Part shown: one piece after another, positions 7,037 through 62,481 of the stretch
Layout: the number at the start of each line of letters is the position of its first letter
Position numbering within the stretch: position 1 is the stretch's first letter
Source of the DNA: Candidatus Yanofskybacteria bacterium
Lineage (GTDB): Bacteria > Patescibacteriota > Minisyncoccia > 2-02-FULL-40-12 > IGHO2-01-FULL-4-A
NCBI GenBank assembly: GCA_016181175.1
Contig: JACOZV010000001.1
Span: 75,778-139,777 of the forward strand
Direction of reading: 5' to 3'
Length of the DNA: 64,000 nucleotides
The notes under the pieces: generated by a model
The model's database searches: none
Seen by the model: the letters and a program-made list of their open reading frames with translations, nothing else
Told to the model about the DNA's origin: nothing
Made by a program: the position numbers and the translations under genes

Positions 7037-7124
7037 TCTATGCTAATTTTGCTGGGCATTACAAATTAGTCGAGCGATGGTGAGGCAAGAAGTGAAGCCG
7101 ACTCTCCGTGTTGCTAATTTAGTA

Positions 7125-16276: not shown

Positions 16277-16293
16277 AAAATAATTTTTTAACT

Positions 16294-22200: not shown

Positions 22201-22437
22201 GACGGCACCCTGGTTAAATTAAAAGATAACTACAAGGTTTACCTTGTAGACAAAACCCAGCTTAAATGGATTGAAACCCAGGAAGAGTTTAAGACCAAGA
22301 AATATAAATTAAAAGACGTGATTGCTATTACCAAGGACGAGTTTGAGTTGTATGGGATGGGGGAGGAAGAACCCATCGAAGAGATAACCACGGGGATAGA
22401 GATGGGAATAATCCCCTCGTCAAGTGAGGGGCAGTAA
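16294..22437 (+). CDS. Giant secreted multidomain surface protein 2 (2047 aa): Ig-like domains, (PT)n linker, parallel beta-helix region, 3x FN3-like domains, 4x C-terminal repeats of about 55 aa
   Basis: Signal peptide MSKHLKIIIFSLFLVAGFTMKSDFASAAS; Ig-like GVSGVQFKLDGVNLG…; PTPTPTPTPTPTPTPTP; three VISN…ITWTTD…YHYRVKS FN3 repeats; C-terminal YKVY…GYxxxxVxx…EL repeats. Confidence 0.75.
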   Translation: MSKHLKIIIFSLFLVAGFTMKSDFASAASRYWVGGGSSTNWNATGPTNWSATSGGTNNDTVPNSTDDVFFNSSSGTGNSVISASITINSFDATGYTGTLTHNASVTLTISGSGVVFKLASGMTYTKGGNTSSALSFTGTSGTTMITTAGKTIGKITFNGVGGSWQLQDALNAAGTASQIILTSGNFDSNNFNVTMGSFVSSNSNTRTLTMGSSTWKLQDGGTIVWNLATVTGLSLNAGTSTIVISSTNGSGKTFAGGGQTYYNVVFSGDNINISDSNTFNNFAINNAGLTNGLALGVGKTQTIMGSFTTNGSAGSLAILKTTTSGSTATLSKASGTVCVDYMSIKDSTVSGGASWYAGANSTNVSGNTGWTFSACPGGDTTPPTVSISSPTAGLTVSGNTTVSATASDNVGVSGVQFKLDGVNLGVEDIDSPYSITWDTTATTDGSHDLTATARDASGNQTTSSAVTVTVSNPTPTPTPTPTPTPTPTPTPLPATGIPVIFFTDLESGPNTGGENNNGAFVTIYGKNLSGSTVTVGGGSAIIKLTSTPYLWYEKMAIQLGASTNSGNIIVTNAYGSSNNLPFTVRAGNVYCVSMTGADSNNGKFTTETPPSAGVQGCWLNVYKAKNTIAAGDIAYILDGANQTTPEPGTGVALQISNGGNLGNPKALIVYPGGTSVLGAIGSGDWVGSVGGIKVLGSASNADYITIAGFTFKTFSSALSISGNTYPSAQHWRFIGNYLTCPGGDGQSACASPGSMEYLEFLGNEITDAGCKEGGTQNCKLISPANTITTVGTTLTLSGFTSGVNLGARICVTTCASGQVRHIVAAGPNNLNWILDSAFTSDVTDSTFQFRYGLTSKQYHSVYVDNSDHIEIGWSYIHNNNSCRGILTNSTGTTGGHQQHDLSYHDNIIHHQTCAGIDLNTVDPNTGPVEVYNNLIYHVGTGPTPHDGIGNLACIYSGDNNRSSPGAGTIEVYNNTLYDCGSYNPTSGDSGAINKSGQNENIIINLRNNIILQNSGEVYIKSSGNNNINAQVTGSKNLFAMVSGSAQDLSGFTGLTPYLTLDPLFISTTTPDFHLQSTSPAKDAGVFTTALFDIDGISRPQGASFDIGAYEYPSGAVADTTSPTVSITSPTDGSTLSGAANTITANASDNIGVVGVQFKIDGINLGSEDTSSPYSINWDTTTYTNGSHTITAVARDPSSNTTTSSGVSVNVNNEVAPTPPVISNVTASSITTTGATITWTTDKSSDSQVEYGLTTSYGSSTTLDSTLVTNHSVLLSGLTSQTTYHYRVKSQDTPGNLATSGDFTFTTATPPPVISNVQATNITATSVTITWATDRATTSKVNYGLTSSYTNSTVKDTTLVTSHSVSIGGLSASTLYHYQVESSDSGNLTSVSSDATFTTAASALPVISNIQATNITTSGVTITWTTDISSDSQVEYGTTTAYGSSTTLDSTLVTSHSVALTGLSAGTIYNYRVKSSGAVSTNKTFSTTSASDTTAPAAVTNLASTGTTRTSVDLSWTAPGDDGNTGTATSYDMRWLTVPITDSNWSSANILTGLPAPKTAGTTQTYTAIGLTANITYYFALKTKDESNNVSALSNVISAKTKTDTATGGGGGGASSFDASPGPVKISRIGEADSQILLEWRNPTDEDFVRVQIVVNENRQPLNQDDGRIILEENTTKFLHVNLRNGKTYYFNIYALDLAKNFSEPVKLKAVPQEGVLSFAENIEPLDVAQTTQYIAPKIITEEDFSVFRPRIFPKAVLIRYAFDKNVYYIENGKRRLVPNYATLLKLTNNNPNKVLTVLDKELIDGYSSAAPLEEKDITSLSKEITAQSALVKTKDKPTVYLVNTIDKTKQTIPTLAVFYSYGFSFKNVSETKQEDVDALTEAGELTLKTFPNGFLMKSPDSYKVYIIQDGQKRWIKTLKLFLGFKYIDKDVTTLPKELIEAYPTGSDIEKQDETLPSKLQIKVPATIHADGTLVKLKDNYKVYLVDKTQLKWIETQEEFKTKKYKLKDVIAITKDEFELYGMGEEEPIEEITTGIEMGIIPSSSEGQ

Positions 22438-22445
22438 GATGACAA

Positions 22446-25400
22446 ATGTTAAATCTAATTTTCCAAAAACTGCTCAAAAAGAAAACGATTGACCGCTTGA
22501 TTCTAGCGGTCAAAAAGTTTATAGCCGGCACGACGATTTTAATGTCGGTGTTTTACGGCACTCTTTATTATGCCCTAGTCACATTAGCTAGCGAAAACGA
22601 ACAAGTTCCCAAACCACTTGTCAGTCAGACAGGAGATCCGACCAGTAATCCCGGCAGATATTATTTAGAGTCTCTTAAAAACAGAGCTGATGAAATTGTC
22701 GGTCTTACCTTTACAAGCCACGATAATTACCAAGAATTTGTTTTCGCTGGCAATAAAATTATTGAGCCAGCATCAATTACTATAAACGACAAACCATACG
22801 TGCCATTCAGATTGCTTTTGTCTTCAAGCAGTAAGGACTACGAAGTTGAACTCAAATCCAAGAAAGGGACGCAAATAATTTCTTTAGCCGGAGATCGTTT
22901 CGAGTATTCTATTTTTGAAAAACAACAAAAAGGTTTTTTGAAATTGGCTTCCGTTAATCCGAAATTTCAAATAAAAAATTGGGGGACCGTGGAAGAACCT
23001 CAGTCAACACCCAGCTGGCAAGATATTATTTTTACAAATCCAGTATCAACCAGTTGGTCAGTATATGACAATTACATAGAAATCAAACAAAATAGCAATT
23101 TTATTACAGGAGAAAAAAATTACAACGCTTGGTTAAAGGTAAAACTTGGTTTTGATAGTTCAGATTATATTAACTCCTGGAATTTCGGCGTATCAGGCCA
23201 GGAAAATATTACACCCGCAGATGAATTTAGAATTAGACTGCAGACTGTGCTTGCGGGTAAAATCAAACATCAGACAAATGATAGCGGTAACTTGGAAGTT
23301 GGTATAGAGAATCCAAAAAGTAATACAGCTGAGGATGTCATAGATTTGGACAATTTATTTCTAAATCCAACGGCTTCGGTATCTCAAACGCCGAGTATAT
23401 TACCAGAAGCTACGGTCGGTTCGATACCAGTGGAACCAGAAGTAACTCAATTACCAAGCGCCACCACAGAACCTTCGCTGATTTCGACACCCGAGCCGTC
23501 TCTTACTCCGGCTGCATCTGTGTCAGAATCGGGCAATGAAGCAAGCCCTTTGTCTGAAGAACAAGAGACGATCCCGACTCCGCATTTTGAGATTACTTCA
23601 ACCCCATCCAGCGAGAGTCCAGCCCTAGAATCAATACCGGAGCAGACGCCGGAGCCGATTACTACGTCCCTGCCGGAAACTACTGGCAATCAAGACGAAA
23701 CCACGCCTGAACCAAGCCCCACCTCGCTATTAAATAAATTCTTTGGAATCAATATTGTAAATGCAGAAGAAGTGACAGAGCAACCAGTAGAAGCAAGCAT
23801 AGACCCGGTCATTATACCAGAAAATACAACTAATCCAGTCTCCGAAATACAAGAGCCTACTTTGTCGGAAACTGATACCGATGAAACTGCGAATTCTATT
23901 ATAGCGGAACCGATACTCCAACCACTGATTGAGGGTGCTTCAAGTATTATTAATCAAGTTACCGATAGTTTAACTAATTTTGCAGAAAGTCCGAGTATAT
24001 CATTGCCGACTTTGGAACCGGAGACAGTTTCTAACAGCGAGCCGGTAACTATTTTTGAAGAACCTATTGTTGCAAGCTCAGATCTTTCGGAGCCCCCCCA
24101 AAAGCCGCAATCAATTCCAGCCCAAATTGCAAACGTATTAAATAGTTTGAATCTTTTTTCTGTTACTCAAACCACCATTTCTGAATTAAATTTTGGTTTA
24201 GGAGACGAGGGTGGGAGCAATCTCCAGATAGATGAGAATAATAACATCCTAACAACAGAGGTAAGTTTGAATTCCAGCAACAACGGGGTTTCAGTTATAC
24301 TTTCAGATATCGGTGTGGCCGTTTATAACACCGGTATCTGGATAGCTTCGGGCGATGGCAGTAAATCAACAGATTTCAAACTTCACTTCAATTCCAGCTA
24401 CGGCGGCGCGATTGATGAGTTGTATCTTGGCACCGACTTTCATACCAACAAAGTGGCGACTCCGCAGGCAGGATCGGGGGGGCTGACATTGATTGAGCAG
24501 GATCATTTTTCCCAAGCGGAAACCAGAAGTTCAACCCTGGAAGTGATTGAGCAATCCAAGGTCAGGATAGTCATAGACAACACCTTTAGACTTGGCCCGG
24601 AGGCTGGCATAGCCGAAAAGTGGTCAATTTATGCCACCGGCCGGATAATAAAACAAACGATTTTTGATAAATATAAAACTGGCGAGGAAAGGTGGTATCT
24701 CAATGCTGCCAAAACCGGTTTTGATTTATCAGCGGGTTATAACTACAATCAGCTGATTTTAAACACCAAACTGGAACCCAATTCCAAAGACCTGATGTTG
24801 GTTTGGCAAAATCCAAGTTTGTTGACCTCTTCTTCTTTTGAGGCAGGCGAAACGGATAGTTCATATACAACCGTTGCGAAATTAAACCGTCAGCCGTGGA
24901 CCTATACTGAATACCAAATGATTGATTTGATGCAAGAGGATTTGAGCATGATTGATAAAACCTCAATAGATGAAAGAGCGAATGATTATCGCAATCCCGA
25001 CAATCCAGAATTCACGGTCGGCAGTTTCAGAAAGGTCAATCAGCAATATTTTTCTTATGAAATGGATTCGGCCGGCAGTAAAAATCATGTAGTATTCAAA
25101 ATGGACGGTTCACAAATCGCAAGATTCCATCCGGTATTTGAAATTCACGAATGGAACAACCCAGACCTTAGCGCAATCAGATCATACATGAACCAGAAAA
25201 ATATGGTTGAGAATCGTGACTATATTGTTGATTTCAGGAATAGTGATCCCGGCACTGGTATTTTGATATTCCACTTTCTTGGCACAGTACGCACCAATTC
25301 AGAATTAAGCGCTGACGGGTTTGTAACTTTTGATATTGATCCGGAGGTTACTCCGGGTTCGGGGATACTGGCTTATGGAGGAGGGAATATGCAGACAAGT

Positions 25401-27908
25401 TTTGTGACTACCGATGCTACAGGAAATAACTTGGGAGCTTTTGCCAGCGTTTCAGCGAGCACATTTAATCCGTTTTGGGTGGTTAATCGTGCCAGTCCGG
25501 TTGGCGGTAGTCAGGCCTCCGGTTCGGACAATGAACACTTGGTAGGCGACCTTAACGGCACTGGCAATCTTGAGATGCTGCGCTGGAACGGTACCGCTTG
25601 GGCGTTGGATTGGACGGAAAACAATGTTGGTTCACAATCGCTTGATGTAAGAGCGTATGATATTGCTTATGAAAATAGCGGTGAAGCGGTGGCGGCTTGG
25701 TCCCAAACTAACGATACAACTGGTCTTATTGAATACAGAGTTTGGAATGGGATTAGTTGGGGAGCGTCAACAAGCTTCACCGTGCCGACCACAAACAAGA
25801 TTGCTTGGATTGAAATGGCATCACACCCAGCCAGCGGTTCAAATCAAAATGATATTGGACTCTGCTATGTTACCGGCGGATTGAACGAAACCGGTTGTGC
25901 AGTCTGGAATGGGACTACAAATACCTGGGGCAATGCGGTGCTTAGAGAAAGCGATTCATTAAATAATAGAAAATCCGTTTCAGTATTTTACGAGCAAAGC
26001 TCTGGAGATCTTATAGAAATTTCGGGTATAGAACATACCACAAATGGTGGTGGTGTGGTTTTGACCTATTCAAGTTGGGATGGCTCAAGTTGGACGGCAA
26101 CATCCTCTTTCAGTAGCGGCAGCGGAACGGGGGATAGTGCCAATGATCTTAGTTGCGCTCCAGCTCCTTTTTCGCTCAACGGCACGACTACGAAGAATAA
26201 GGCGGTATGCCTTGCTTATGATGGTTTTGCAGATGACGTGTGGTCGTTTATATGGGACGGTTCGGCGCCTAACAACGAGAATTCAAATACTACAACAAGT
26301 ACTGTTGCCGCCGGTTTACTTATTTCTGGCGGAGTCAATTGGATTATTGATACGAGAGCTATGGGGCTAATTATTATCAATGTTAGTGCGGGCAGCAACC
26401 AAGTTGATTATGAGTACTGGGATGATACTGCTGGCGCTTGGACGCTAAATCAGACATTTACGCATACCACTGGTACTAAAAGAAGTTTTCAGGTTGAACC
26501 AAATCCAAACCAGAAAAACACGGCAACAGTTCTTATAAGTGACAATAATACCAATCTCTTTGCTTATGAAGCCAGTGTCAGCGAAACCACAGTTACTTTT
26601 AATAACTTGAATAATGGTAATGCAATAACTCAAGATTTAACGAATGTTGGCAAAAACCAAGCATTTATGATGGCCTACGACCTATTCCCCAACCCTACCC
26701 AGACGCATTTCCAATGGTTGAATGACGATGCGGGGTTGAACTCTGGGACTGCGGCTGCCGCCCAGGATGCGACATTAACGGGATTAACAAACGGTTCAGT
26801 TAAGAGATTGAGGGTTGAGATTTCAAACGAAGGCGCAGGGAGCAAAAGCAGTAATTTCCAGCTGGAGTTTGCCAAAAAAGGTTCTGGTTGCACTCAAGCT
26901 ACGCTTTCCGCCGGTTGGAATTACAGGGAGATACATACTGATTCGGTAACTGCTTCAGACGCTTTTGATATACAAGATTCAACCAACTTCAGCAATGGGG
27001 CGGCGACAACAGCATCATTGAGTGCCAGCGACCCTACCTTTGTAGCGGGTCAAGGCATAGATTCCGCATCATCCACCAGCGCCATTGCTTTGAATGGCAA
27101 TAACTATACCGAGATTGAATATGCTTTGCAGGCGAATACCAACGCCCAGTCCACGACTACCTATTGTTTCCGCTTGACTGATGGCGGGGCGAGTACTTCG
27201 TTCACTTATCAGAGATATGCGGAGGTTCAGACGGGGACGATTGGAGTTTCCGTTCCAACCTATACCGAAGATTTCTTCAGGTTCTATATAAATGTTGACA
27301 ATATTTCTCCAACCGATCCTTGGCCAACTAGCTCTAATGATTTAGCCGAAAACGCCACAATGTCAGCGCATTTTGCAAGCATTGCCAGCGGCAGTATTAT
27401 GCGTTTGCGAACCAACATGTTAGTGGGAACGGCTACTCTAAATGCCGCCTCGCAAACATTCCAACTGCAATATGCGGAAGGATTCAACTGCGGAGCATTA
27501 TCCGGTGGCAGTTGGGCTTCAGTAGGGGCGTCTACAAGTAATACAATCTGGCGATTTGGATCTAATGGAAGCGTAACTGACGGCACGGCCCTATCAAGCG
27601 GCGGCACCCTTTTATCCAATTCTGATAATGGCGCGCGAGCTACCTACGAAGAGGGCAATCCATCAGCAGTCAATCCCAATGCCGTAACCAGCGGCCAGCG
27701 CATGGAACACGACTGGTCTGTTCAAAATAATGGTGCCGTATCCGGCGCGGCATATTGTTTTCGTATTATCCGTAATTCCGGTACAACCCTCGAAACCTAT
27801 AACAGGTATCCTCAAGTAATACTAGGCCCGTCAACCGACCAGATTTTACGCCACGGTGCTTTCTTCAGCGAAGGAGTTGAGCAAGGGTATTACTGGTCAG
27901 GAATTTAG
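22446..27908 (+). CDS. Giant membrane-anchored surface protein 3 (1820 aa): mucin-like S/T/P/E-rich stalk and C-terminal repeated jelly-roll-like modules
   Basis: N-terminal TM helix FIAGTTILMSVFYGTLYYALVTL; about 150-aa low-complexity TEPS region; repeated C-terminal modules ending …YCFRL…YQRY / …YCFRII…YNRY. Confidence 0.7.
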   Translation: MLNLIFQKLLKKKTIDRLILAVKKFIAGTTILMSVFYGTLYYALVTLASENEQVPKPLVSQTGDPTSNPGRYYLESLKNRADEIVGLTFTSHDNYQEFVFAGNKIIEPASITINDKPYVPFRLLLSSSSKDYEVELKSKKGTQIISLAGDRFEYSIFEKQQKGFLKLASVNPKFQIKNWGTVEEPQSTPSWQDIIFTNPVSTSWSVYDNYIEIKQNSNFITGEKNYNAWLKVKLGFDSSDYINSWNFGVSGQENITPADEFRIRLQTVLAGKIKHQTNDSGNLEVGIENPKSNTAEDVIDLDNLFLNPTASVSQTPSILPEATVGSIPVEPEVTQLPSATTEPSLISTPEPSLTPAASVSESGNEASPLSEEQETIPTPHFEITSTPSSESPALESIPEQTPEPITTSLPETTGNQDETTPEPSPTSLLNKFFGINIVNAEEVTEQPVEASIDPVIIPENTTNPVSEIQEPTLSETDTDETANSIIAEPILQPLIEGASSIINQVTDSLTNFAESPSISLPTLEPETVSNSEPVTIFEEPIVASSDLSEPPQKPQSIPAQIANVLNSLNLFSVTQTTISELNFGLGDEGGSNLQIDENNNILTTEVSLNSSNNGVSVILSDIGVAVYNTGIWIASGDGSKSTDFKLHFNSSYGGAIDELYLGTDFHTNKVATPQAGSGGLTLIEQDHFSQAETRSSTLEVIEQSKVRIVIDNTFRLGPEAGIAEKWSIYATGRIIKQTIFDKYKTGEERWYLNAAKTGFDLSAGYNYNQLILNTKLEPNSKDLMLVWQNPSLLTSSSFEAGETDSSYTTVAKLNRQPWTYTEYQMIDLMQEDLSMIDKTSIDERANDYRNPDNPEFTVGSFRKVNQQYFSYEMDSAGSKNHVVFKMDGSQIARFHPVFEIHEWNNPDLSAIRSYMNQKNMVENRDYIVDFRNSDPGTGILIFHFLGTVRTNSELSADGFVTFDIDPEVTPGSGILAYGGGNMQTSFVTTDATGNNLGAFASVSASTFNPFWVVNRASPVGGSQASGSDNEHLVGDLNGTGNLEMLRWNGTAWALDWTENNVGSQSLDVRAYDIAYENSGEAVAAWSQTNDTTGLIEYRVWNGISWGASTSFTVPTTNKIAWIEMASHPASGSNQNDIGLCYVTGGLNETGCAVWNGTTNTWGNAVLRESDSLNNRKSVSVFYEQSSGDLIEISGIEHTTNGGGVVLTYSSWDGSSWTATSSFSSGSGTGDSANDLSCAPAPFSLNGTTTKNKAVCLAYDGFADDVWSFIWDGSAPNNENSNTTTSTVAAGLLISGGVNWIIDTRAMGLIIINVSAGSNQVDYEYWDDTAGAWTLNQTFTHTTGTKRSFQVEPNPNQKNTATVLISDNNTNLFAYEASVSETTVTFNNLNNGNAITQDLTNVGKNQAFMMAYDLFPNPTQTHFQWLNDDAGLNSGTAAAAQDATLTGLTNGSVKRLRVEISNEGAGSKSSNFQLEFAKKGSGCTQATLSAGWNYREIHTDSVTASDAFDIQDSTNFSNGAATTASLSASDPTFVAGQGIDSASSTSAIALNGNNYTEIEYALQANTNAQSTTTYCFRLTDGGASTSFTYQRYAEVQTGTIGVSVPTYTEDFFRFYINVDNISPTDPWPTSSNDLAENATMSAHFASIASGSIMRLRTNMLVGTATLNAASQTFQLQYAEGFNCGALSGGSWASVGASTSNTIWRFGSNGSVTDGTALSSGGTLLSNSDNGARATYEEGNPSAVNPNAVTSGQRMEHDWSVQNNGAVSGAAYCFRIIRNSGTTLETYNRYPQVILGPSTDQILRHGAFFSEGVEQGYYWSGI

Positions 27909-29254: not shown

Positions 29255-29308
29255 TAATTTTTAATTTTTAATTTTTTAATTTTATAAATAAACTCTAAAT
29301 CTAAAACA
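29254..29308. repeat. Left arm of the AT-rich palindromic hairpin repeat (family A), interrupted by the 4HB gene
   Basis: AATTTTTAATTTTTAATTTTTTAATTTTATAAATAA matches the 5' arm of copies at 37306, 55441 (inverted) and 62394. Confidence 0.7.
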
Positions 29309-29644
29309 ATGAAATATGATCTTGAAGAAAGGTGTGCGAAATTTGGTGAAAATATAATTTTATTTTTGAGTGGTTTAAAAAAAGATGAAATTAATCGGCC
29401 GCTTGTTGGCCAACTGATCAGATCGGCTACAAGTATCGGTGCCAATTACATGGAAGCAAATCAGGCTGCATCCAAAAAAGATTTTATTAATAAAACAAGA
29501 AATAGCCAAAAAGAAGCTAATGAGAGCAAGCATTGGCTAAGAATGATTGCTGTTGCTTCGCCGAATCACAAAGAAAGTTGTAGAAAACATTGGCAAGAGG
29601 CCCATGAGTTGACGTTAATTTTTGCCAAAATTAGCAAGAGTTAG
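29309..29644 (+). CDS. Four-helix-bundle protein of the 23S rRNA intervening-sequence protein family (TIGR02436-like; Avd-like fold)
   Basis: 111 aa; DLEERCAKFGENIILF…VGQLIRSATSIGANYMEANQAASKKDFINK…ESKHWLRM matches the S23p/4HB family consensus. Confidence 0.8.
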   Translation: MKYDLEERCAKFGENIILFLSGLKKDEINRPLVGQLIRSATSIGANYMEANQAASKKDFINKTRNSQKEANESKHWLRMIAVASPNHKESCRKHWQEAHELTLIFAKISKS

Positions 29645-29654
29645 TTTTTGAACC

Positions 29655-29707
29655 CTTTTAAACATTAAGATTTATTTAAAAATTATAAAATTACAAAATT
29701 AAAAATT
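29655..29707. repeat. Right arm of the AT-rich palindromic hairpin repeat (family A)
   Basis: AAACATTAAGATTTATTTAAAAATTATAAAATTACAAAATTAAAAATT matches the 3' half of the 37306..37410 copy. Confidence 0.7.
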
Positions 29708-34612: not shown

Positions 34613-35151
34613 GGCCATAATCAAATATATGAATAAATTCCACAATAATTTCATAACAAAAAGCGGCTGAAGCCAAGTTCTTAATTTGCGTTTACAAGCA
34701 GCCGCGTAAATCGCGGATTTTTTATCAAAATTGAATATATTAGAGCCATTATTGGCTGTCGTCGGGCATCTCCTTACGGAGGTGCCCGACGGAAGCTAAC
34801 ACTAAACCGATTGAATAGATTGCAATTTAAAAAATAAATAGTTAGCGGGTATCCCGGTTAGAGCTTGCGATTGCCACAAGTGGCAATCCACCTCTAACGG
34901 GATTAAAAAATTGCATTTCTGCATTTAGAAATGAGTTCCAAAATGCAGAATAAGTAGATTGAATTCGATCTATCAATAGAGATCGAGGATTTAATCTTGT
35001 AAGGAATTATTAAGGGCGTATGGAGGATGCCTTGACACCAAAAGGCGACGAAGGACGTGGCGTGACGACGATATGCTTCGGGGAGCCGTCTAGCGGGCTT
35101 TGATCCGGAACATCTCAGTAGCCAGAGGAAAATAAAACAAACCCCGCACCT

Positions 35152-35273
35152 TTTGAGCACAAGATTTTATTTGGCATCCGCATTGTGATGCGTGGCTGAC
35201 GGATATTAATTATTTGTTGTTTGCGCACTACATTTCGGAATCTAATTGACACTAGTGCTTAAAAGGTGCGGGG
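35152..35273 (+). repeat. Hairpin insertion in the 23S 5' domain, flanked by 13-bp inverted repeat CCCCGCACCTTTT / AAAAGGTGCGGGG (family B)
   Basis: Inserted between GAGGAAAATAAAACAAA and AACATTTCCTAAGTAGCGGCGAGCGAA; same IR termini as 57160..57227 and 42283..42458. Confidence 0.65.
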
Positions 35274-35652
35274 AACATTTCCTAAGTAGCGGCGAGCGAA
35301 AGGGAAACAGTCTAAACTCTTGTTTATTAAGTTTACTTAGTGAGTGGGAGTGTTGTAGGAAGGATTTTTTTCTAAACACTGGACATCTGCATATACTCTT
35401 GTGCGGATATCCAGGAAATTAGGATTGAGTTACAAAGTTAGATGTTAGCTGAACGGTCCTGGAAAGGCCGACCAAAGAGGGTGATAGTCCCGTAAACCAA
35501 AACCTCTAATCTCAATCAACCGAGCACATAACTTTTAGGAGTTATGAGCTCGGTTGGAAAATCCTCTCCTGAGTACCCATGGAGCAGACTATCCGTGGCG
35601 AAGCCGGGCCTACTACGGTCCAAGACTAAATACTTTTGGTGATCGATAGTGA

Positions 35653-35686
<34 letters not shown>

Positions 35687-35799
35687 GGTTAGGGGAGTGA
35701 AATAGAACTGAAACCATATGCCTACAAAGAGCCGAAGCCCTTCCCGTCGCAAGACGGTCAGGGTGACGGTGTGCCTATTGAAGAATGATCCAACGAGTT

Positions 35800-36128
35800 T
35801 TTACAAGTGGTTTATCCAGCTTCACTTTTGGTTTATGATGACTTTATGTGGATAGTTTATATTATTCAGAACAATCTAACTGAAAAAATATATATTGGCT
35901 GTACAAATGATCTCAAGAAACGAGTCGAAAAGCATAACAGCCAAACAAATAAAGGTTATACAAGACGACTTATCGGTCAATGGATTTTGATATACGCGGA
36001 AGCTTATAGAAGCAAAGAAGATGCTTTTCGACGGGAGTCAAAACTCAAAGACCACGGTAGTTCTAAACATGAATTGAAGAAGAGAATCAGCAATTCATTG
36101 TTAAAACCAAAAGTGAGGCTGGATTAAG
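35800..36128 (+). mobile_element. Stem-bounded intervening sequence in the 23S helix-25 region carrying a GIY-YIG ORF
   Basis: 19-bp stem CCAGCTTCACTTTTGGTTT (35816-35834) / AAACCAAAAGTGAGGCTGG (36104-36122) enclosing the ORF; inserted between …GAATGATCCAACGAG and GGATAAGCCCGTATAGGG…GGAAACCGAGTG. Confidence 0.65.
35846..36127 (+). CDS. GIY-YIG nuclease-family protein (YhbQ/UPF0213-like) encoded inside the 23S IVS
   Basis: WIVYIIQNNLTEKIYIGCTNDLKKRVEKHN…YTRR…WILIYAEAYRSKEDAFRRESKLK is a GIY-YIG motif set; an alternative GTG start lies at 35807. Confidence 0.7.
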   Translation: MWIVYIIQNNLTEKIYIGCTNDLKKRVEKHNSQTNKGYTRRLIGQWILIYAEAYRSKEDAFRRESKLKDHGSSKHELKKRISNSLLKPKVRLD

Positions 36129-36582
36129 GATAAGCCCGTATAGGGTGCATCCGTAGGGAAACCGAGTGTTAAAAGCGCGACTTAATCGCTTGTAAAAGAC
36201 CCGAAGCCAGGTGAGCTACCCATGGCCAGGATGAAGTTTGTCGAAAGACAAATGGAGGTCCGAACTAGTTGATAGCGCAATATCATTGGATGAGCTGTGG
36301 GTCGGAGTGAAAAGCTTATCGAACCTGGTAATAGCTGGTTCTCCCCGAAATGCCTTTAGGGGCAGCGCCGGTGAGTAGTCGCGGGGGTAGAGCTCTGAAT
36401 GGTTTGCCGTGCCAGCAATGGTAGGCTTACCAAACAAACTACGAATACCGCGGTGTAATCGCCGGTAGTGAGACTGTGAGGGCAAAGCTTCATAGTCGCG
36501 ACGGGATTAGCCGTTTGACCACCGCTTAAGGTCCCTAAATCTATGCTAAGTGTTAAAGGAAGTCATTTTCCTTAGACAGGTA

Positions 36583-36624
<42 letters not shown>

Positions 36625-37305
36625 CAGCTTACTGCTCGAATTCTAATTTCGGTTAGACGAGGAAAGTGGCGCCGAAGATTCAACGGGGCTAAGCATAGTA
36701 CCGAATGCGTGGACCGTCCCGATTTATCGGGATGAGTGGTAGGGGAGCACTTCAAGCCGCTGCGAAGGTGTGTCGTGAGGCATGCTGGAGCGCTTGGAGG
36801 AGAGAATGTTGGAATGAGTAACCACAAGCGAGGTGAGAACCCTCGCCGCCGTAAGCCTAAGGTTTCCTCCGCAATGTCAATCACCGGAGGGTTAGGCGAC
36901 GCTAAGGATAACCGTGCCTACGGGCATGGGAAGCCGATGCTAAGCCGGTTAATATTCCGGCCCTTCCATATGTATTGATGGAGCGACGGAGGATATAAGC
37001 TGGAGCAGATTATTGGATTTCTGTTTTTGGATTCCAGGATTGTCGTTTGGAAAATCCGGCGACTGACTTTAATGTCAAAATACGAATTTGAAGAAATCAC
37101 GGGTAACCGTGGGATTCCAGTGAAGAGCCTTCCAAGAAAAACTTCTAAAATTATGCATATGGGAAACGTACTTAAAACCGACACAGGTGGGCTAGTGTAA
37201 GTGCACTAAGGCGAACGGGTGATTATTGGCTAAGGAACTCGGCAAAAAAGTGGCCGTACCTTCGGTATAAGGCCTACCTGACCGTGCCTCACTGCGTTCG
37301 GCACG

Positions 37306-37410
37306 AATTTTTAAATTTTTAATTTTATAATTTTAATAAATAATTTCTAATGTTTAAAAATTAAAAACATTAAGATTTATTTAAAAATTAAAAATTGGAA
37401 ATTAAAAATT
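37306..37410. repeat. AT-rich palindromic hairpin repeat (family A), full ORF-less copy inserted in a variable 23S helix near the helix-63 region
   Basis: AATTTTTAAATTTTTAATTTTATAATTTTAATAAATAATTTCTAATGTTTAAAAATTAAAAACATTAAGATTTATTTAAAAATTAAAAATTGGAAATTAAAAATT; arms are mutual reverse complements; central mini-hairpin TAATGTTT/AAACATTA; flanked by 23S exon sequence. Confidence 0.75.
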
Positions 37411-37632
37411 CTAACAAGCCGAGCATAGCGAGGCGCGGTTGGGTCGCAGCTAACGAACCCCTGGCGACTGTTTATCTAAAACACAACTCTGTGCTAAGCC
37501 GAAAGGCGCTGTATACAGGGTGACGCTTGTCCAGTGCTGGAACGTTAACGGTGGAGGTGGTATGCAGCAATGTGTATTGCCAACGCCCGAAGCGCCAGTG
37601 AACGACGGCGATAACTATAATCGTCCAAAGGT

Positions 37633-38949
37633 TTTGAGAATTTGTCAGATGGCAAGTTCTCAAAAGGACTTGGCCGATTGTAGTGAATTTATATTGATAA
37701 ACAAAAGTAGCTGCCTATCGCGTGACGAAAGTTTTACGCGATGTCTTAAAATATATTCGATCATATGCTGGAAAGTCTGAGTATCCACAACTACTATGGT
37801 ATGATGTTACCTTTGGTGATAAAATATATCTATGCCAAGTAAAAATGTTAGTGGTGCAGACGATCAGCAGGAAAGTCTGAAAATGATGGGTTGGATAACA
37901 GGTTTTGTTGATGGGGAAGGATGTTTTACTGTCAGTATATTCAAGAATTACAAAGCTCAACGCAAGCTCGGATGGCAAGTATTCCCTGAGTTTGTAGTTT
38001 CCCAAGGAGAGAAGAGCTTGAGCGTTCTCGAACTGATCAAGAACTACTTCAACTGTGGTTATATAATAAAAAATAAAAGGAACGATAACCACCACGAAGA
38101 TATGTTCAAATACTGTGTGAGATCTTTGTCGGATCTAGAAACCAAAATTGTGCCATTCTTTACCCAAAACAAACTCCTAACCGCAAAGCGAAGAGATTTT
38201 ATAATCTTTAAGGAAATCCTAAAAATGATGGGTCGCAAGGACCACCTTAACCTTAAAGGACTTAGAAAAATTGCCTCTCTAGCTTTGCAGATGAATCGTA
38301 AAAAAAGACCCAAGTTTTCAGAAATCCTCAGAGACTAAACGTCGAACCCGCTCAAATTTTTGGACTTAAATAAAAAAAACCTCAACTGAGGTTTCGATGA
38401 ATTTGCTATTAATAATCAATTATAGGAGCTTGTTCGTGCCGCTTATCTATACCTTTAAATCTACTGTCGGTACGGATTTTCCTAATGGTATTTCGTGGTA
38501 ATTCACATTGAATCAGCATAATATCATTGTTTCTGAGTTTAACATTAAATTCTACTATGCCATATTCTATAAAATATATAATAAGAGATGCTACCCAGCG
38601 TACATGAACACGAAGAGTTAATTTTTCCATGAATTTTCCACCTTTCTTTTGTGATTTAAAATGAACTTTGAAATGCAACACCAATAAACTAAATGTTTAC
38701 TGGTTTGCCCTACTCGCCCTGATTTGTAAAAGGATGAGGAAAATAAGGATAACCCTTTACTTTACTCGTCTTTTAGCTGATTTTTATTGTAAAATAAGGA
38801 CAAATCAGATGTTGCACTTCGGGGGTAAATGCGAGCGAAGAAACCCAGTGGTAAGTATAAATCAATTAAAATTTAGTGTCAATAGTCCAAAAATTTGAGC
38901 GGGAAGATATAGTCCGAACTGCATGGCGACATGCAGAGTAACATACTTA
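37633..38949 (+). mobile_element. Intron in 23S at the E. coli ~1917 site (CCAAAGGT | AGCGAAATTCC) carrying a LAGLIDADG homing-endonuclease gene
   Basis: Exon junction reconstitutes AAGGTAGCGAAATTCC; 1317-nt insert; internal 19-bp long-range pairing CCCGCTCAAATTTTTGGAC / GTCCAAAAATTTGAGCGGG; 3' motif GAACTGCATGGCGACATGCAGAG shared with the insert at 39499. Confidence 0.7.
37832..38338 (+). CDS. LAGLIDADG homing endonuclease (single-motif, I-CreI-like), intron-encoded
   Basis: 168 aa; MMGWITGFVDGEGCF LAGLIDADG motif. Confidence 0.8.
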   Translation: MPSKNVSGADDQQESLKMMGWITGFVDGEGCFTVSIFKNYKAQRKLGWQVFPEFVVSQGEKSLSVLELIKNYFNCGYIIKNKRNDNHHEDMFKYCVRSLSDLETKIVPFFTQNKLLTAKRRDFIIFKEILKMMGRKDHLNLKGLRKIASLALQMNRKKRPKFSEILRD

Positions 38950-39169
38950 AGCGAAATTCCTTGTGGGGTAAGTTCCCACGCGCATGAATAGCGGAACGAC
39001 TGGGGGACTGTCTCAGCCAATAGCCCGGTGAAAATGCAATGTCAGTAAACGAGTTTTTATGCGTAGTGTAGTGGCGAGCCTTTGAAGTCATGTTCTTGGA
39101 TGTGATGGAGGCGACAATGAAACAGCCATCTTAAAGACTTGTAATTCTAACTGGTGTAACCCTAGGAGG

Positions 39170-39441
39170 TAAAATATGTTTTCTGATAAAAAACCAATAG
39201 AATATTGGATGCAAGAACTAATGAATCTAAAACATGAATGTGATCTGATGACAGAAAGGATAAGGAGTACCAGAGCGAACATTGAATATCTAATAGATTC
39301 AATCAAAGACAGAAGTCCAAAAGGAGTTGACCCAGAAAAATGGAAAAAGTTTTTAGCAGAATGGAATTCGTTTCAAATTGAATATAGTAACTTCCAATTT
39401 TAGTTTAAGTCGCCCTATTTTTAGGCAAGTTTTATTTGCCT
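39170..39441 (+). mobile_element. Stem-bounded IVS in the 23S domain V (helix-79-equivalent) region with a 75-aa ORF preceded by a perfect SD
   Basis: 14-bp stem GTAACCCTAGGAGG / CTTCCTAGGGTTAC encloses the insert; AGGAGGTAAAATATG gives SD spacing of 6 nt. Confidence 0.6.
39176..39403 (+). CDS. Small helical hypothetical protein encoded in the 23S IVS
   Basis: 75 aa (MFSDKKPIEYWMQELMNLKHECDLMTERIRS…); strong SD; no recognised family. Confidence 0.45.
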   Translation: MFSDKKPIEYWMQELMNLKHECDLMTERIRSTRANIEYLIDSIKDRSPKGVDPEKWKKFLAEWNSFQIEYSNFQF

Positions 39442-39498
39442 CTTCCTAGGGTTACATCAAGACAGTGCCTGGTGGGTAGTTTAACTGGGGCTGTTGCC

Positions 39499-39995
39499 TT
39501 AACGCGGTATTCGTTACACCGCATGGGGCCTACTGAAAGTAATTTCAGTATGCAAATTCGACTATATGCTGGAACCCCCGCGCATATCTGAATACTCTAC
39601 TTAGTAGCTGAGCTACTAAGTAAGTGAAAATTTTGGATCGATGCGGACAATCAGCAGGGAAGTTCTTCAATTAAATTCAGGACCCCTCAACGACTGTACG
39701 TCGAGTGCCGCGAAGCGGCAATGATACAGTCTGAACTGCATGGCGACATGCAGAGCTGGGCAGAAATGACCCGGCCGCCTATAAAATTTGGTTTTTTAAG
39801 GCCATGTTTTATGGGAAGGGTTTAGCGAATAATGCCTTATAGCACCGTTGAAGCTGTGCGATTGCACGGTTTGCGAGCAGTATAATTTTTCACTGCGAGT
39901 AAAATCCACAGATTCAACGGAGCGTAGCAACCTCGCTGGGGTTGCAAGCGGTGATAGAAGGTATTATTCGCTAAACCTGCAAAGTAACACAATTG
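39499..39995 (+). other. ORF-less structured insertion (intron or IVS) in 23S between GGGGCTGTTGCC and CCTAAAGAGTAACGGAGG
   Basis: About 497 nt with no ORF of 60 aa or more; contains GTCTGAACTGCATGGCGACATGCAGAG, near-identical to the 3' motif of the 37633..38949 intron, and a 20-bp internal stem GGTTTAGCGAATAATGCCTT / AAGGTATTATTCGCTAAACC. Confidence 0.5.
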
Positions 39996-40250
39996 CCTAA
40001 AGAGTAACGGAGGCGTTCATTAAGGTCGGCTAGCTGCGGATGGAAATCGCAGCGATAGTGTAAAGGCAAAAGCCGGCTTAACTGCGAGACGGATGTGTCG
40101 AGCAGGTGCGAAAGCAGGACTTAGTGAACCGACCGTTGGTCGTAGGACCGCGGAAGATCATCAGACAAAAGCTACTCCGGGGATAACAGGCTGGTACTGC
40201 CCGAGCGTCCCTAGCGACGGCAGTGTTCGGCACCTCGATGTCGGCTCGGC

Positions 40251-40769
40251 TTTTAATCGACTTTTTAACTGTTTGAGCCCGAGGAAAAGACATCAAAATA
40301 TAAATCACGGCGCAATAATATAGGAATATATTATTGACTGCTAACTTATATCGGTAAAACCCATTCGGTAAACTCGGGGTAATACCGAGAGAAGTTATTT
40401 GTTCAAATTTTTGGAAAAATAAAAAAGACCCTATTGGGTCATGTAAAATATGGCAAATGGTAAGGTAATGGCTAAAACAAATTGAAAGCGACAGAGACCA
40501 TCAGTATAGATTTTTTTGAAAGATCCAAGGGCTATAAGAGAGTTAAAAATCCAGAAAATAAGCATTAAAACCAGAGATATTAGCAGTTGTTGGGAGTTCA
40601 TTATTGCCTCCTAAATTAAATATAATTGATTATTAAATTATTGTCAATACCCAATTAATTTGACTCCAAAAATTTGAACAAATAACACTCGTAGAGACTA
40701 AATGTTAGCCATCCAATCTGCCAATCAGTGGAGGATGAAGTTATGGTCCAATGCACATAGTAATATGTG
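40251..40769 (+). other. ORF-less insertion in 23S after CACCTCGATGTCGGCTCGGC (E. coli ~2510 region); boundaries unresolved
   Basis: About 500 nt without an ORF; internal long-range pairing TTGTTCAAATTTTTGGAAAAAT / GACTCCAAAAATTTGAACAA resembles the module in the 37633..38949 intron; exon resumes near GAAACATGCGTGAGACAGGTTGGTCC. Confidence 0.4.
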
Positions 40770-40840
40770 GAAACATGCGTGAGACAGGTTGGTCCTTATC
40801 TGGTGCGGGCGTTGAAGTTTGAGGGGGGTTGTCCCTAGTA

Positions 40841-41614
40841 AGAAATTGCTACTTCACGCAGTAATGCGTGATGACAACTCGGCTAATAACGGTGAAATCT
40901 TATTATTTTTGTGTTCGTTGATAACTACAATTGTCGCGGTCCGACAATTATAGTACAATTTACTTGAGGACCAGAAATAATTAAGACGATACCGTGGGAA
41001 GTCAATCTAAAATTGATTTAGCATATATTGCAGGTTTTCTTGATGGTGACGGAAGCTTGATGTTACAAATCAAGAGACGCAAAGATGGAACCAAAAAGTT
41101 TCGCTTTATGTCTACAATTTGTTTTTATCAGGATAGTAACCACGAAGAATTTCTGCATTGGATAAAAAATATTCTTGGAATTGGTTATTTGACTCAAAGA
41201 GATGATGGCATGAGTGAACTAAGAATTAATGGATTTAAACAAGTTAAAGATATAATAAAAAACTTATTGCCATTTATTAAATTCAAGAAAAATCAAGCCA
41301 ATGCTATTTATGAAGCAACTAGCATGATGAGCAGTAAGATTCTAAGCCGTTTAACCAAGCAGGAATTGTTAAAAATCGTAGATTTAATGCTTATAATTCA
41401 AAAGCATAATTATAAATCTAGAAGCAAGAAAACCAAAAAAGAACTCATTCAATTATTAGATTTGACCCCGTAACGACTTGTCGAGTTTAGCTCGACGGAT
41501 GATTAGCGATGAGATTGCATCAATGGTTAATCATAACATGCCGATTCCCTGAATCCGCTTTTTGCGGGAGGGAAAAGATATAGTCTACACTTATAGTGAT
41601 ATAAGATTTTGTGA
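40841..41614 (+). mobile_element. Intron in the 23S sarcin-ricin loop (CCCTAGTA | CGAGAGGACCGG) carrying a LAGLIDADG homing-endonuclease gene
   Basis: Flanking exons reconstitute CCTAGTACGAGAGGACCGG exactly; 774-nt insert. Confidence 0.7.
40994..41473 (+). CDS. LAGLIDADG homing endonuclease, intron-encoded
   Basis: 159 aa; LAYIAGFLDGDGSL LAGLIDADG motif. Confidence 0.8.
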   Translation: MGSQSKIDLAYIAGFLDGDGSLMLQIKRRKDGTKKFRFMSTICFYQDSNHEEFLHWIKNILGIGYLTQRDDGMSELRINGFKQVKDIIKNLLPFIKFKKNQANAIYEATSMMSSKILSRLTKQELLKIVDLMLIIQKHNYKSRSKKTKKELIQLLDLTP

Positions 41615-42282
41615 CGAGAGGACCGGGATGAACGAACCTCTGGTCTACCAATTGTTTTGCCAAAAGCAGCGTTGGGTAGCTATGTTCGGTTCCGATAAGC
41701 GCTGAAAGAGATTTGAGGCGAGGCGAAGCAAAAACAACGAGGCATGGCTTGTGCCATGTCAAGGAGTTTTTGTGAAGCCGCAGCTCAAATATATAAATTG
41801 CAGCAGAAATGATTATTAAGTCGGAGGCACAAAGATTCGTGAGAGATTATCACGTTGATAGGGCGCAGGTGTAAGCGCGGTAACGCGTTCAGCCGAGCGC
41901 TACTAATAAATCATCAATTCCTTACAAGATTAAGTCCTTATGACCTTCGCGCTTAAACTGCGGAGCCCCCAAAATCTAAGGGGCTGGCCGCAGTTAAGCC
42001 GCAAGGATTTGCCCAATTTCTTCGTTAAGCACTCCGGTGCTCCCTCGCCATACCTCTAGTATGGCTCGGTTCACTCCTCGTGCTTGCCTCGAACTTGGCC
42101 AAACGCGAAGGTCAAAAATGCAAAAACACCCCTTTAACTATAAAAACTAAAAACCATTTGCTTGGTGGTTATACCGGAAGTGTCCCACCCGATCCTCCCG
42201 CCCATGTACACATAGGCGGGATTGCGATTTGCAGTTGTGCTCGTTACACTGTGCGCAAGCAAATCGGTAACATTCAGACTTG

Positions 42283-42458
42283 CCCCGCACCAAAATTAAA
42301 AATTAAAGCCAGCAAGTTGGTGACTATACTGTGAGTGCTCCACCTGTTCCCATTCCGAACACAGAAGTGAAATCTCGCAAGGCCCATGATAGTACAGTGC
42401 TTAGCATTGTGCGAAAGTAGGTAGTCGCCAGCTTGCTGGTTTTAATTTTGGTGCGGGG
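42283..42458. repeat. Family-B inverted repeat (CCCCGCACCAAAATTAAAA … TTTTAATTTTGGTGCGGGG) enclosing the 5S gene as an extended processing-stem/hairpin
   Basis: Left arm 42283-42307, right arm 42440-42458, 19 bp perfectly complementary. Confidence 0.6.
42308..42439 (+). rRNA. rrf: 5S rRNA with a 16-bp extended terminal helix
   Basis: GGTGACTATACTGTGAGTGCTCCACCTGTTCCCATTCCGAACACAGAAGTGAAATCTCGCAAGGCCCATGATAGTACAGTGCTTAGCATTGTGCGAAAGTAGGTAGTCGCCAGC; ends GCCAGCAAGTTGG / CCAGCTTGCTGG pair. Confidence 0.8.
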
Positions 42459-42587
42459 ACTCGGTAGTGAAATCTTCCAGGGCCTATGATAGTATCGTGC
42501 TTAGCATGATACGAAAGTGGGTCACCGCCAGACAAATGGTTTTTAGTTTACTTTTATTTTAGTAGTGATCCAGCTATAATTAATCTA

Positions 42588-55191: not shown

Positions 55192-55226
55192 AAAATCTCC
55201 ACCGATCGGTGGAGATTTTATTTTTT
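55192..55226. terminator. Bidirectional rho-independent terminator between recA (+) and rpsR (-)
   Basis: AAAATCTCCACCGATCGGTGGAGATTTT followed by ATTTTTT. Confidence 0.8.
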
Positions 55227-55430
55227 AAGAGTTTGTAATTTTGTATATGGCATGAGTCCCATATATCTGGCATTTTTAACTGCGTTGGCTACCATGCGCT
55301 GGTGCTTCTGGCACAAGCCGGTGCGGACCGAAGAAGAAATCTTAAACTGGCCCGAAACAAATTTGCGGAGTATATCCGTGTTTTTATAATCAACATAATT
55401 AATTTTTTCCTGACAAGCGGAACAAACCAT
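55218..55430 (-). CDS. rpsR: 30S ribosomal protein S18
   Basis: 70 aa; …YKNTDILRKFVSGQFKI…RMVANAVKNARYMGLMPY. Confidence 0.9.
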   Translation of the reverse strand: MVCSACQEKINYVDYKNTDILRKFVSGQFKISSSVRTGLCQKHQRMVANAVKNARYMGLMPYTKLQTLKK

Positions 55431-55440
55431 GCTTGGGTGA

Positions 55441-55540
55441 ATTTTTAATTTCCAATTTTTAATTTTTAAATAAATCTTAATGTTTTAATTTTTAAACATT
55501 AGAAATTATTTATAAAATTATAAAATTAAAAATTATAAAA
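55441..55540. repeat. AT-rich palindromic hairpin repeat (family A), inverted copy between ssb and rpsR
   Basis: Reverse complement is about 95 percent identical to 37306..37410. Confidence 0.75.
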
Positions 55541-56060: not shown

Positions 56061-56106
56061 CCCGTACGAGACAGGAAATGATTTATCTGAGTAAATCATT
56101 TCCGTG
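56061..56106 (-). promoter_or_regulatory. ssb translation-initiation module: GGAAATGATTTA-loop-TAAATCATTTCC hairpin plus CCTGTCTCGTACGGG-ATG
   Basis: Minus-strand RNA reads CACGGAAATGATTTACTCAGATAAATCATTTCCTGTCTCGTACGGGATGAATCTG. Confidence 0.55.
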
Positions 56107-56134
56107 CCCATTTAATCTACTTTATTAATCCCGC

Positions 56135-60716: not shown

Positions 60717-60817
60717 CCCAATTACTAATTGATCTAAACAAATCGCAATACCCAAAATCTAATTAGTCATTTGTTGTTATTTAGTAATTAGAGCAATTAA
60801 TAATTAGAAATATATTT

Positions 60818-62051: not shown

Positions 62052-62393
62052 ATGAGTCGAAGTATCAAAAAAGGCGTATATGTGGATGAGAAACTGATGA
62101 AAAAGGTCAGCAAACTTAGAGTTGGTGATAAAACAGTAATCAAGACGTGGGCAAGGGCTTCAACGATTGTGCCTGAAATGGTGGGTTTTACTTTCGGCGT
62201 GCATAATGGCAAGACACATTTACCGGTTTTGGTTACAGAAGATATGGTTGGACACAAACTTGGCGAGTTTTCACCGACGCGCAAGTTTAGCCGTCACGGT
62301 GGCAGAATGCAGCGTGAGATAGAAGCTGCGGCCAGACAAAAAGAAATAGAAGCGGCGCAGGCGGCAAAGGTGGAACCCGAAGCCAAGAAGTAA
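62052..62393 (+). CDS. rpsS: 30S ribosomal protein S19 with a C-terminal extension
   Basis: …[18 protein letters not shown]…. Confidence 0.95.
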
Positions 62394-62481
62394 TTTTTTA
62401 ATTTTATAATTTTATAAATAATTTCTTAATTTTTAAACATTAATATTTATTTAAAAATTAAAAATTGGAAATTAAAAATTT
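62394..62481. repeat. AT-rich palindromic hairpin repeat (family A) splitting rpsS and rplV inside the S10 operon
   Basis: TAATTTTTTAATTTTATAATTTTATAAATAATTTCTTAATTTTTAAACATTAATATTTATTTAAAAATTAAAAATTGGAAATTAAAAATT, similar to 37306..37410. Confidence 0.75.

Follow-up and report, generated by a model that had tools for sequence, protein, structure and literature searches.

The 23S ribosomal RNA (rRNA) gene in a 64-kb stretch of contig JACOZV010000001.1 (the window, in whose numbering all positions are given unless another locus is named) is interrupted at 37306..37410 on the forward strand by a 105-nt palindrome made almost wholly of A and T. This raises the question of what kind of element the insert is, and what becomes of it once the gene is transcribed. 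The insert, here called copy A, lacks an open reading frame (ORF) and sits in the apical loop of an extended helix 63; related copies lie outside the rRNA gene, one of them around a gene of the IVP family (PF05635, 23S_rRNA_IVP). We consider it probable that a mobile IVP cassette of the Candidate Phyla Radiation (CPR) gave rise to copy A as an ORF-less, non-autonomous derivative, and that copy A acts as an rRNA intervening sequence (IVS). Loss of the ORF is presumably the direction of derivation, and the element would appear to be mobile at the DNA level.

Placement and fold of the element

An earlier note, made from the letters alone, had claimed that copy A is flanked on both sides by 23S sequence. 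The boundaries it gave are exact, and the flanks can be read directly across both junctions (…CCGTGCCTCACTGCGTTCGGCACG | AATTTTTAAA…AAAAATT | CTAACAAGCCGAGC…CTGTTTATCTAAAACACA). A cmscan search of 37100-37640 matches positions 1575-1965 of the Rfam LSU_rRNA_bacteria model (217 bits, E 2e-69), which identifies both flanks as 23S. This is also the large-subunit covariance alignment that the note had proposed as a check: 37271-37288 corresponds to model positions 1745-1762, and from 37289 onward a block of 144 nt (37289-37432) replaces the 3-nt consensus loop of the model hairpin 1745-1780, so that the insertion point is model position 1762/1763. We take this hairpin to be helix 63 of domain IV, a surface helix, by the helix naming of the Escherichia coli secondary structure; the conserved motifs behind the assignment are …GGCAAAA…CCGUACCUUCGG…AAGG, 5′ of the insert, and CGACUGUUUA…AAAACACA, 3′ of it.

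In the 144-nt block, the helix is first lengthened by a GC-rich stretch of 17 bp (37289-37305 with 37411-37432), on top of which sits the 105-nt A/T element. The 5′ strand of the helix (37274..37305, +) runs from a conserved base, CTACCTGACC…, into a GC-rich lineage-specific extension, …GCCTCACTGCGTTCGGC ACG; the 3′ strand (37411..37449, +) comprises a CTAACAA junction, the extension GCCGAGCATAGCGAGGC, and the conserved base GCGGTTGGGTCGCAG. When the extension is paired by hand, 15 of its 17 pairs form with 37418-37434.

Copy A itself reads AATTTTTAAATTTTTAATTTTATAATTTTAATAAATAATTTCTAATGTTTAAAAATTAAAAACATTAAGATTTATTTAAAAATTAAAAATTGGAAATTAAAAATT, with the termini AATTTTTAA… on the left and …AATTAAAAATT on the right. 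Its A+T content is 94.3% (99/105), above the "about 85 percent" of the earlier note, whose statement that the composition lies far outside that of the surrounding rRNA is borne out: GC content is 0.11 at 37300-37399 (taken over 100 nt), as against 0.44–0.56 in the adjoining rRNA. No ORF of at least 20 aa lies inside the element, in agreement with its description as ORF-less; a spurious frame of 42 aa begins within the final 16 nt of the element and continues into the rRNA.

The computed fold of 37270-37450 is a single long hairpin that continues the host helix at −70.5 kcal/mol, while shuffled sequences average −30.6 kcal/mol (z = −10.1) and none of 200 is as stable. Folded alone, copy A reaches −21.3 kcal/mol with ~46 pairs, and its arms have the potential to form a duplex of ~46–48 bp. 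The sense strand folds better than the antisense strand (−15.6 kcal/mol) because it can form G·U pairs. Matches to the miRNA families MIR7533 and MIR8007 at the insert fall far below the gathering scores and reflect only the long hairpin. The Rfam group I intron model (Intron_gpI) finds no match at 37289-37432, though the same model recovers three introns elsewhere in the gene.

A repeat family and its link to IVP cassettes

The earlier note had also assigned copy A to a repeated family of AT-rich hairpins, and the window does contain four copies, one of which bears an ORF. A 24-nt core pattern occurs at exactly four places in the window, where 100 shuffles lead one to expect none. Searched against the window with blastn, copy A matches 55439-55534 with 98% identity across 98 nt (E 7e-43), and further matches fall at 62395-62480 and at 29256-29292/29656-29707. 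Copy B (55440..55534, −) is ORF-less and separates ssb (55533-56111, −) from rpsR, on the same strand; the stop codon TAA of ssb overlaps the first two bases of the copy. Like copy A, copy B folds better in the sense (−20.7 kcal/mol) than in the antisense direction (−15.8 kcal/mol). Copy C (62392..62480, +), likewise ORF-less and with a shortened loop, spans the whole spacer between rpsS and rplV in the S10 operon, beginning at the stop codon of rpsS and ending at the ribosome-binding site of rplV. Copy D (29256..29707, +) is a full-length cassette with arms at 29256-29308 and 29645-29707 around an ORF at 29309-29644, and it exactly occupies the spacer between two co-directional genes. This ORF encodes 111 aa assigned to PF05635 (52.2 bits, cutoff 33.8); the inverted repeats of the cassette, I1/I2, are 38–44 nt long and 80–82% complementary, and the arms co-fold at −21.4 kcal/mol.

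The termini of all four copies, AATTTTTAATT… and …AATTAAAAATT, are sharp and inverted relative to each other, and no flanking direct repeat was found at any of the four. Each of the four is oriented in the sense direction of the transcription unit around it, although orientation calls, here and in other genomes, are soft, the element being near-palindromic. Judged from its sequence identity to copy B (98% over 98 nt), copy A appears to share a recent common origin with the copies outside rRNA.

A role of the copies as intrinsic terminators was considered and rejected: they have no GC-rich stem followed by a T-run, they lie within an essential rRNA gene and the S10 operon, and no terminator-like call was made at any copy, B and C included. 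They are also unlike a canonical intrinsic terminator of this genome, which consists of a GC stem, CTCCACCGATCGGTGGAG, and then a T-run, TTTTATTTTG, at 55205-55235 (−), after rpsR and between the convergent rpsR and recA. A promoter role was likewise rejected, as the A/T arms hold few promoter-like 9/12 matches, below the counts in shuffles.

The family extends well beyond this genome. Scans of sequence collections used exact words, and their counts are samples rather than censuses. Among species-representative genomes, an exact scan with the 24-nt core found at least nine loci, of which at least seven belong to CPR genomes (Parcubacteria group, Moranbacteria, Saccharibacteria, and others). 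Five of seven CPR loci fold as clear A/T hairpins of ~100 nt, and the copies at L003 and L010 are partial. ORF-less copies in these other genomes occupy intergenic spacers. A second copy at the Moranbacteria locus L006 (7554-7678) fills the spacer between two co-oriented tRNA genes.

Homologs of the IVP protein number more than 5500 at E ≤1e-5; the best, 70–85% identical, come from Moran-, Falkow-, and Microgenomates metagenome-assembled genomes (MAGs). Most of the homologs lie on very short contigs, as expected because the repeat breaks assemblies. Nine IVP loci, the window copy and eight homologs with surrounding DNA, were examined. In every one the ORF is bracketed by the same AT-rich inverted repeats (AATTTTTAATTTT… / …AAAATTAAAAATT), and in every one it is co-oriented with both neighbors, for example pilC/pilin, tig/epimerase, trpE/trpG, and ftsK/HTH. 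Avd, a four-helix-bundle accessory protein of diversity-generating retroelements, is discussed under PF05635 (PMC10053308); the IVP cassettes share this family and differ in their surroundings, since no reverse transcriptase, template repeat, or variable repeat adjoins any of the nine. By sequence, the sole relative of IVP in the PDB is 2rld, an uncharacterized protein. Among viral contigs, the search returned one chance-like DNA match and no relative of IVP. In the literature on PF05635, and on palindromic repeats and MITEs (miniature transposable elements with inverted repeats) in Patescibacteria, we found no description of this family.

Between cassettes, the IVP gene shows a proportion of nonsynonymous differences (pN) of 0.17–0.25 against a saturated synonymous proportion (pS) of 0.8–1.0, and is therefore under strong purifying selection. 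Given this saturation, the terminal arms are conserved far beyond neutral expectation, which implies that they are recognized by something. The persistence of the inverted repeats alongside saturated synonymous sites could also be read as a sign of domestication, in which the hairpin serves as an intercistronic RNase III or mRNA-stability site, or as a binding site for IVP, with the 23S copy a by-product. The uniform co-orientation of IVP cassettes with their neighbors (9/9) would fit such a role, as would the location of all copies in transcribed noncoding spacers, often as an exact stop-to-start fill, in ribosomal-protein operons and tRNA clusters. Occupancy is sporadic among related genomes, however, and the orientation of ORF-less copies is inconsistent; selfish elements would likewise be restricted to spacers by purifying selection, and PF05635 proteins have no known function outside diversity-generating retroelements. 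We therefore regard domestication as improbable.

Two further observations concern individual cassettes. At L018 (2843-2965), the right terminus AAAATTAAAAATT occurs twice 3′ of the IVP ORF with a GC-rich hairpin (ACCACCGCCTAATGGCGGGG…) between the two, a layout suggestive of either a nested insertion or a duplicated terminus. In L020-L025 (JGI contigs, one exceeding 1 Mb), an IVP cassette between trpE and trpG has the same AT-rich ends; the genome looks larger and is possibly non-CPR, and insertion sequence (IS) elements (rve, Y1_Tnp) lie near the cassette. This suggests that the IVP cassette crosses phylum boundaries.

Occupancy of helix 63 and fate of the insert

Comparison with related genomes, another check that the earlier note had called for, was made by scanning for exact matches to a 21-nt anchor that lies just upstream of helix 63. 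The scan retrieved at least 120 metagenomic 23S fragments, and a downstream anchor was also located in 114 of these. In 78 of the 114 listed genes the helix 63 region spans 40–64 nt and forms a short helix, usually GCAA-capped; in the other 36 it spans 102–532 nt and holds assorted inserts. They include unrelated hairpins, many of which contain G·U pairs that favor folding of the sense strand; this strand folds better than the antisense strand in 16 of 20 sequences tested, the region of the window included. Some inserts, ~330–350 nt long, carry GIY-YIG ORFs homologous to an ORF at helix 25 of the 23S gene in the window. At L075 (JACXTT010000251.1), the rRNA strand carries three tRNA genes at 6828-7102 (−) inside a 532-nt helix 63 region (by ARAGORN, Ile-GAT and two "Ser" tRNAs of 76–77 nt), which implies that this 23S rRNA is split at helix 63 by tRNA processing. 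Inserts of ORFs or tRNAs cannot plausibly remain in the ribosome; a break at helix 63 must therefore be tolerated.

Among the nearest flanks, for which identities are rough, L080 (91.6% over 500 nt) has a GIY-YIG insert at helix 63 and L079 a different hairpin, while L034, L115, L108, and L074 (~85%) have no insert there. More distant flanks, those of L064 and L071 (~79%), have the GC-rich extension in common with the window, with compensatory changes on both sides, and at the same nucleotide position hold a relative of the element that is shorter and decayed (nhmmer, E 7e-4). Strain variants were sought by exact-protein look-ups of the LAGLIDADG ORF of an intron, S19, and RecA, with nothing on record. 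Helix 63 is a recurrent, sporadic insertion site. Since its occupants vary or are absent, the segment in the window is an insertion at a recurrently tolerated site and not a conserved expansion. The earlier note had named an ordinary expansion segment, conserved among homologs without the repeat signature, as the outcome that would speak against it; what was found was closest flanks with unrelated inserts or none, sporadic occupancy, and an intergenic copy of 98% identity.

These comparisons also bear on the possibility that a repeated AT-rich sequence was mis-threaded into the 23S contig during assembly. The source is a MAG, and short-read contigs with an IVP copy do break at the repeat. Yet the insert is joined at both ends to the tip of a helix, the two strands of which pair with each other across it, the independent assemblies L064 and L071, from other samples, carry a related hairpin at the same nucleotide position together with the GC-rich extension, and many other independent 23S contigs have hairpins at the helix 63 loop. 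An assembly artifact is thus very improbable.

If copy A is an IVS, the steps by which it arose and is dealt with could be as follows. The cassette with AT-rich terminal inverted repeats around a four-helix-bundle IVP gene is widespread in CPR, and one ORF-less copy would have entered the loop at the apex of 23S helix 63; because of this location, it would behave as a bacterial IVS. It would be transcribed within pre-23S rRNA, as it lies inside the gene and has no terminator, and its arms would fold into a ~46–48-bp A-U-rich duplex atop helix 63. RNase III would then most likely cleave the duplex out, without re-ligation, and the two 23S pieces would be held together by the ~27-bp GC-rich base of the helix. 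The copies in operon spacers (ssb-rpsR and rpsS-rplV) may be handled in the same way or may merely be tolerated.

Of the two outcomes that the earlier note allowed, removal or tolerance as an expansion, excision from pre-23S rRNA is, by analogy, somewhat favored. Hairpin IVSs with or without an S23p/IVP ORF are excised by RNase III in Salmonella, Leptospira, and Coxiella, which leaves a functional, fragmented 23S rRNA (PMC4990558; PMC2672173); rnc is retained in CPR (PMC12641178); and CPR rRNA insertions are reported to be removed from transcripts (PMC11270868).

The insert may alternatively stay in the mature 23S rRNA as a ~60-bp extension of helix 63 that protrudes from the large subunit, either neutral or acting as a binding platform. 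Such retention would accord with the coaxial continuation of helix 63 by the insert as one long helix, with the tolerance of this helix for very different lengths (from 40 nt to upward of 500 nt among related genes), and with the G·U-rich, sense-biased hairpins of several relatives, which are compatible with structure mattering in the RNA. The 98% identity to an intergenic copy, and the other occupants or empty sites of the nearest relatives, argue that the insert is not a conserved structural feature. Moreover, ORFs and tRNA genes in the same loop elsewhere must be removed, CPR ribosomes are otherwise reduced at helix 63, and a long, near-perfect duplex belongs to the substrate class of RNase III, which CPR retain (PMC12641178). 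We consider retention unlikely, though it is the alternative that we take most seriously.

Several observations weigh against the interpretation of copy A as an excised IVS derived from a mobile cassette. Nearly all pairs of the duplex are A-U, and several bulges interrupt it. No rnc gene lies within the 64-kb window, and the RNase III signature motif is absent from it, which is unsurprising for 64 kb. Inspection of the flanks of ~10 copies revealed no shared direct repeat of the kind expected of a target-site duplication, and no transposase is recognizable, the same-ended relative encoding only PF05635; the case for DNA mobility is for these reasons indirect. ORF-less copies elsewhere lie in the same orientation as their neighbors in ~7 cases, in the opposite orientation in 5, and between convergent genes in 1. 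The decayed relative in L064 and L071 means that the helix 63 copy may be old, in which case its 98% identity to copy B may have come about through gene conversion or re-insertion instead of one recent jump. A search of metagenome contigs for an exact empty site (GCGTTCGGCACG N0-20 CTAACAAGCCGAGC) returned 0 matches. RNAalifold, applied to nine family members, gave 16 invariant A-U pairs and 1 compensatory pair; the alignment slips, and covariation is uninformative because the arms are low-complexity, heptad-like A/T repeats. Finally, eukaryotic helix 63 bears a long, retained expansion segment, ES27L, so retention at this position is structurally possible.

Known systems and other features of the window

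By mechanism, the closest known kind of element is the bacterial rRNA IVS. Like classical IVSs, copy A lies at the apex of a 23S helix, has inverted repeats that form a long stem, and is sporadic among relatives, and the ORF-bearing form of its family encodes PF05635 in the sense orientation of the host transcript. The co-occurrence of the insert with group I introns in one 23S gene recalls Coxiella (PMC4990558). Copy A differs from classical IVSs in lying at helix 63 rather than at the canonical helices 25, 45, or 9, in its 94% A+T content, and in the absence of the optional S23p/IVP ORF. It differs further in having near-identical family members outside rRNA, in operon and tRNA spacers, whereas the short 23S inserts of two genomes had no homologous or extra copy elsewhere in the genome (PMC2672173); the ORF-bearing copy D is intergenic rather than in rRNA, and excision is assigned here by analogy.

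Tsurumaki et al. (2024), following Brown et al. (2015), give 82% as the share of CPR 23S genes with insertions (PMC11270868). According to that survey, 23S_rRNA_IVP ORFs occur in 22 rRNA insertions, 535 of the 23S insertions are neither intron-like nor ORF-encoding, and the short (<200 bp), non-intron, ORF-less ones are uncharacterized and suspected to be RNase III IVSs (PMC11270868). Copy A shares both the host clade and this short, ORF-less, non-intron class. The survey was concerned with rRNA genes only, and its accessible text reports no shared AT-rich palindrome, no copies outside rRNA, and no link to an IVP cassette (PMC11270868).

With MITEs and repetitive extragenic palindromic (REP)-like sequences, the family shares a length of ~90–105 nt, terminal inverted repeats, dispersed intergenic copies, and a longer, ORF-bearing relative with the same ends. 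It differs from MITEs in lacking a target-site duplication and in that the longer relative encodes a four-helix-bundle protein instead of a transposase, and from REPs in not being of the GC-rich, 20–40-nt type. ES27L likewise extends this helix of the large subunit by a long, flexible arm; it is lineage-conserved and retained, in contrast to copy A, which is a copy of a dispersed repeat and has no counterpart in the nearest relatives.

As an insertion in a CPR rRNA gene, copy A is ordinary; it is unusual in offering a concrete and testable origin for an IVS. Previous hypotheses derive IVSs either from a remnant of transposition or from a mobile element whose ORF supplied a mobility function (PMC4990558). 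One genome here holds the whole series, from IVP cassette through ORF-less copies in operon spacers to a 98%-identical ORF-less copy in 23S rRNA, and the same arms surround IVP genes across CPR, which makes the mobile-element hypothesis directly testable. A broader and more doubtful proposal is that the palindrome and the IVP gene together form a distinct class of selfish element, without a recognizable transposase, that colonizes transcribed noncoding DNA and is harmless because RNase III removes the arm duplex. If this were true, the habitats of the class would be rRNA helix tips, intron loops, tRNA spacers, and operon spacers; an Avd-like IVP would recognize the arms and serve as a mobility or maintenance factor; and bacterial IVSs would be the rRNA-resident fraction of such elements, with copy A a non-autonomous derivative. 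The family may also give an identity to some of the 535 insertions that the CPR survey describes as uncharacterized (PMC11270868), and the comparison marks helix 63 of CPR large-subunit rRNA as a point where breaks are frequent and tolerated. In practical terms, such repeats break short-read assemblies and inflate the rRNA gene lengths of MAGs.

Family members also occur at the apex of another 23S helix, a hairpin just 5′ of helix 25, in L082 (1084-1215), L087 (3857-3990), and L069, the site having been mapped with Rfam in L082 only. These A/T hairpins are bracketed by two small GC-rich hairpins (e.g., CACATTG…CAATGTG, GCATCGCG…), and the same three-arm layout is seen at helix 63 in L082, L128, L032, L145, and L091. 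A related hairpin (…CCTAATTACTAATTGACCTAATTTC…GAAATTAGAAATTAGAAATT) lies in a peripheral loop of a group I intron in L071 (3360-3450) and L079 (8105-8200), again bracketed by small GC hairpins. It is resembled by a different intergenic hairpin in the window, at 60708-60800, whose 5′ arm is rich in A and C and whose 3′ arm is rich in G and T (AATTACTAATTGATCTAAACAAAT … ATTTGTTGTTATTTAGTAATTAG); it therefore pairs well on the transcribed strand only, and it occupies a two-gene spacer upstream of the rpsS-rplV region.

The host 23S gene of the window is heavily interrupted and extends over 35000..42290 (+), its 5′ end taken from Rfam and its 3′ end approximate. At the canonical IVS site in helix 25 lies an insert of 339 nt (35814-36152) with a GIY-YIG ORF at ~35846-36127 and a terminal stem of 24 bp (arms 35811-35834 / 36104-36127). 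Membership of this insert in the family of copy A was rejected on account of its unrelated arms (ATCCAGCTTCACTTTTGGTTT/…) and its GIY-YIG ORF. Homologous GIY-YIG inserts occur at helix 63 of other CPR 23S genes (L080, L144, L129, L099, and L137), with stems that resemble the helix-25 stem (CCAGC.CCACTTTG…); given homologs at both helices, the GIY-YIG cassette appears to be mobile from one helix tip to another. The 3′ half of the gene contains at least three group I introns, at ~37633-38949, 39472-39753 (inside a 511-nt insert), and ~40280-41500 (rough exon boundaries), with Intron_gpI scores in the gene of 67.6, 39.6, and 26.2 bits; two of them have LAGLIDADG ORFs (37832-38338 and 40994-41473). 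The first begins directly after …CCAAAGGU and, judging from this context, appears to occupy the classical L1917-type site.

The 5S gene follows at 42316-42433, 3′ of the 23S gene. Around it lies a 28-nt inverted repeat, 89% complementary (42299-42326 / 42422-42449), presumably the 5S processing stem, and a second inverted pair of 26 nt is found at 42144-42169 / 42524-42549. The window further encodes FtsK, RecA, SSB, a class I aminoacyl-tRNA synthetase, an H+-pyrophosphatase, separate small RpoB and RpoC, and giant Big_7/fn3 surface proteins, and its IVP protein is 100% identical to a protein of a Candidatus Yanofskybacteria MAG at NCBI. The host is a CPR (Patescibacteria) bacterium; the bacterial gene set and the IVP identity rule out an organelle origin. 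Three giant ORFs lie consecutively at 12824-27908 (1150, 2047, and 1820 aa); the first and third have no Pfam match, and the 2047-aa ORF contains Big_7, fn3, and purple-acid-phosphatase-N domains.

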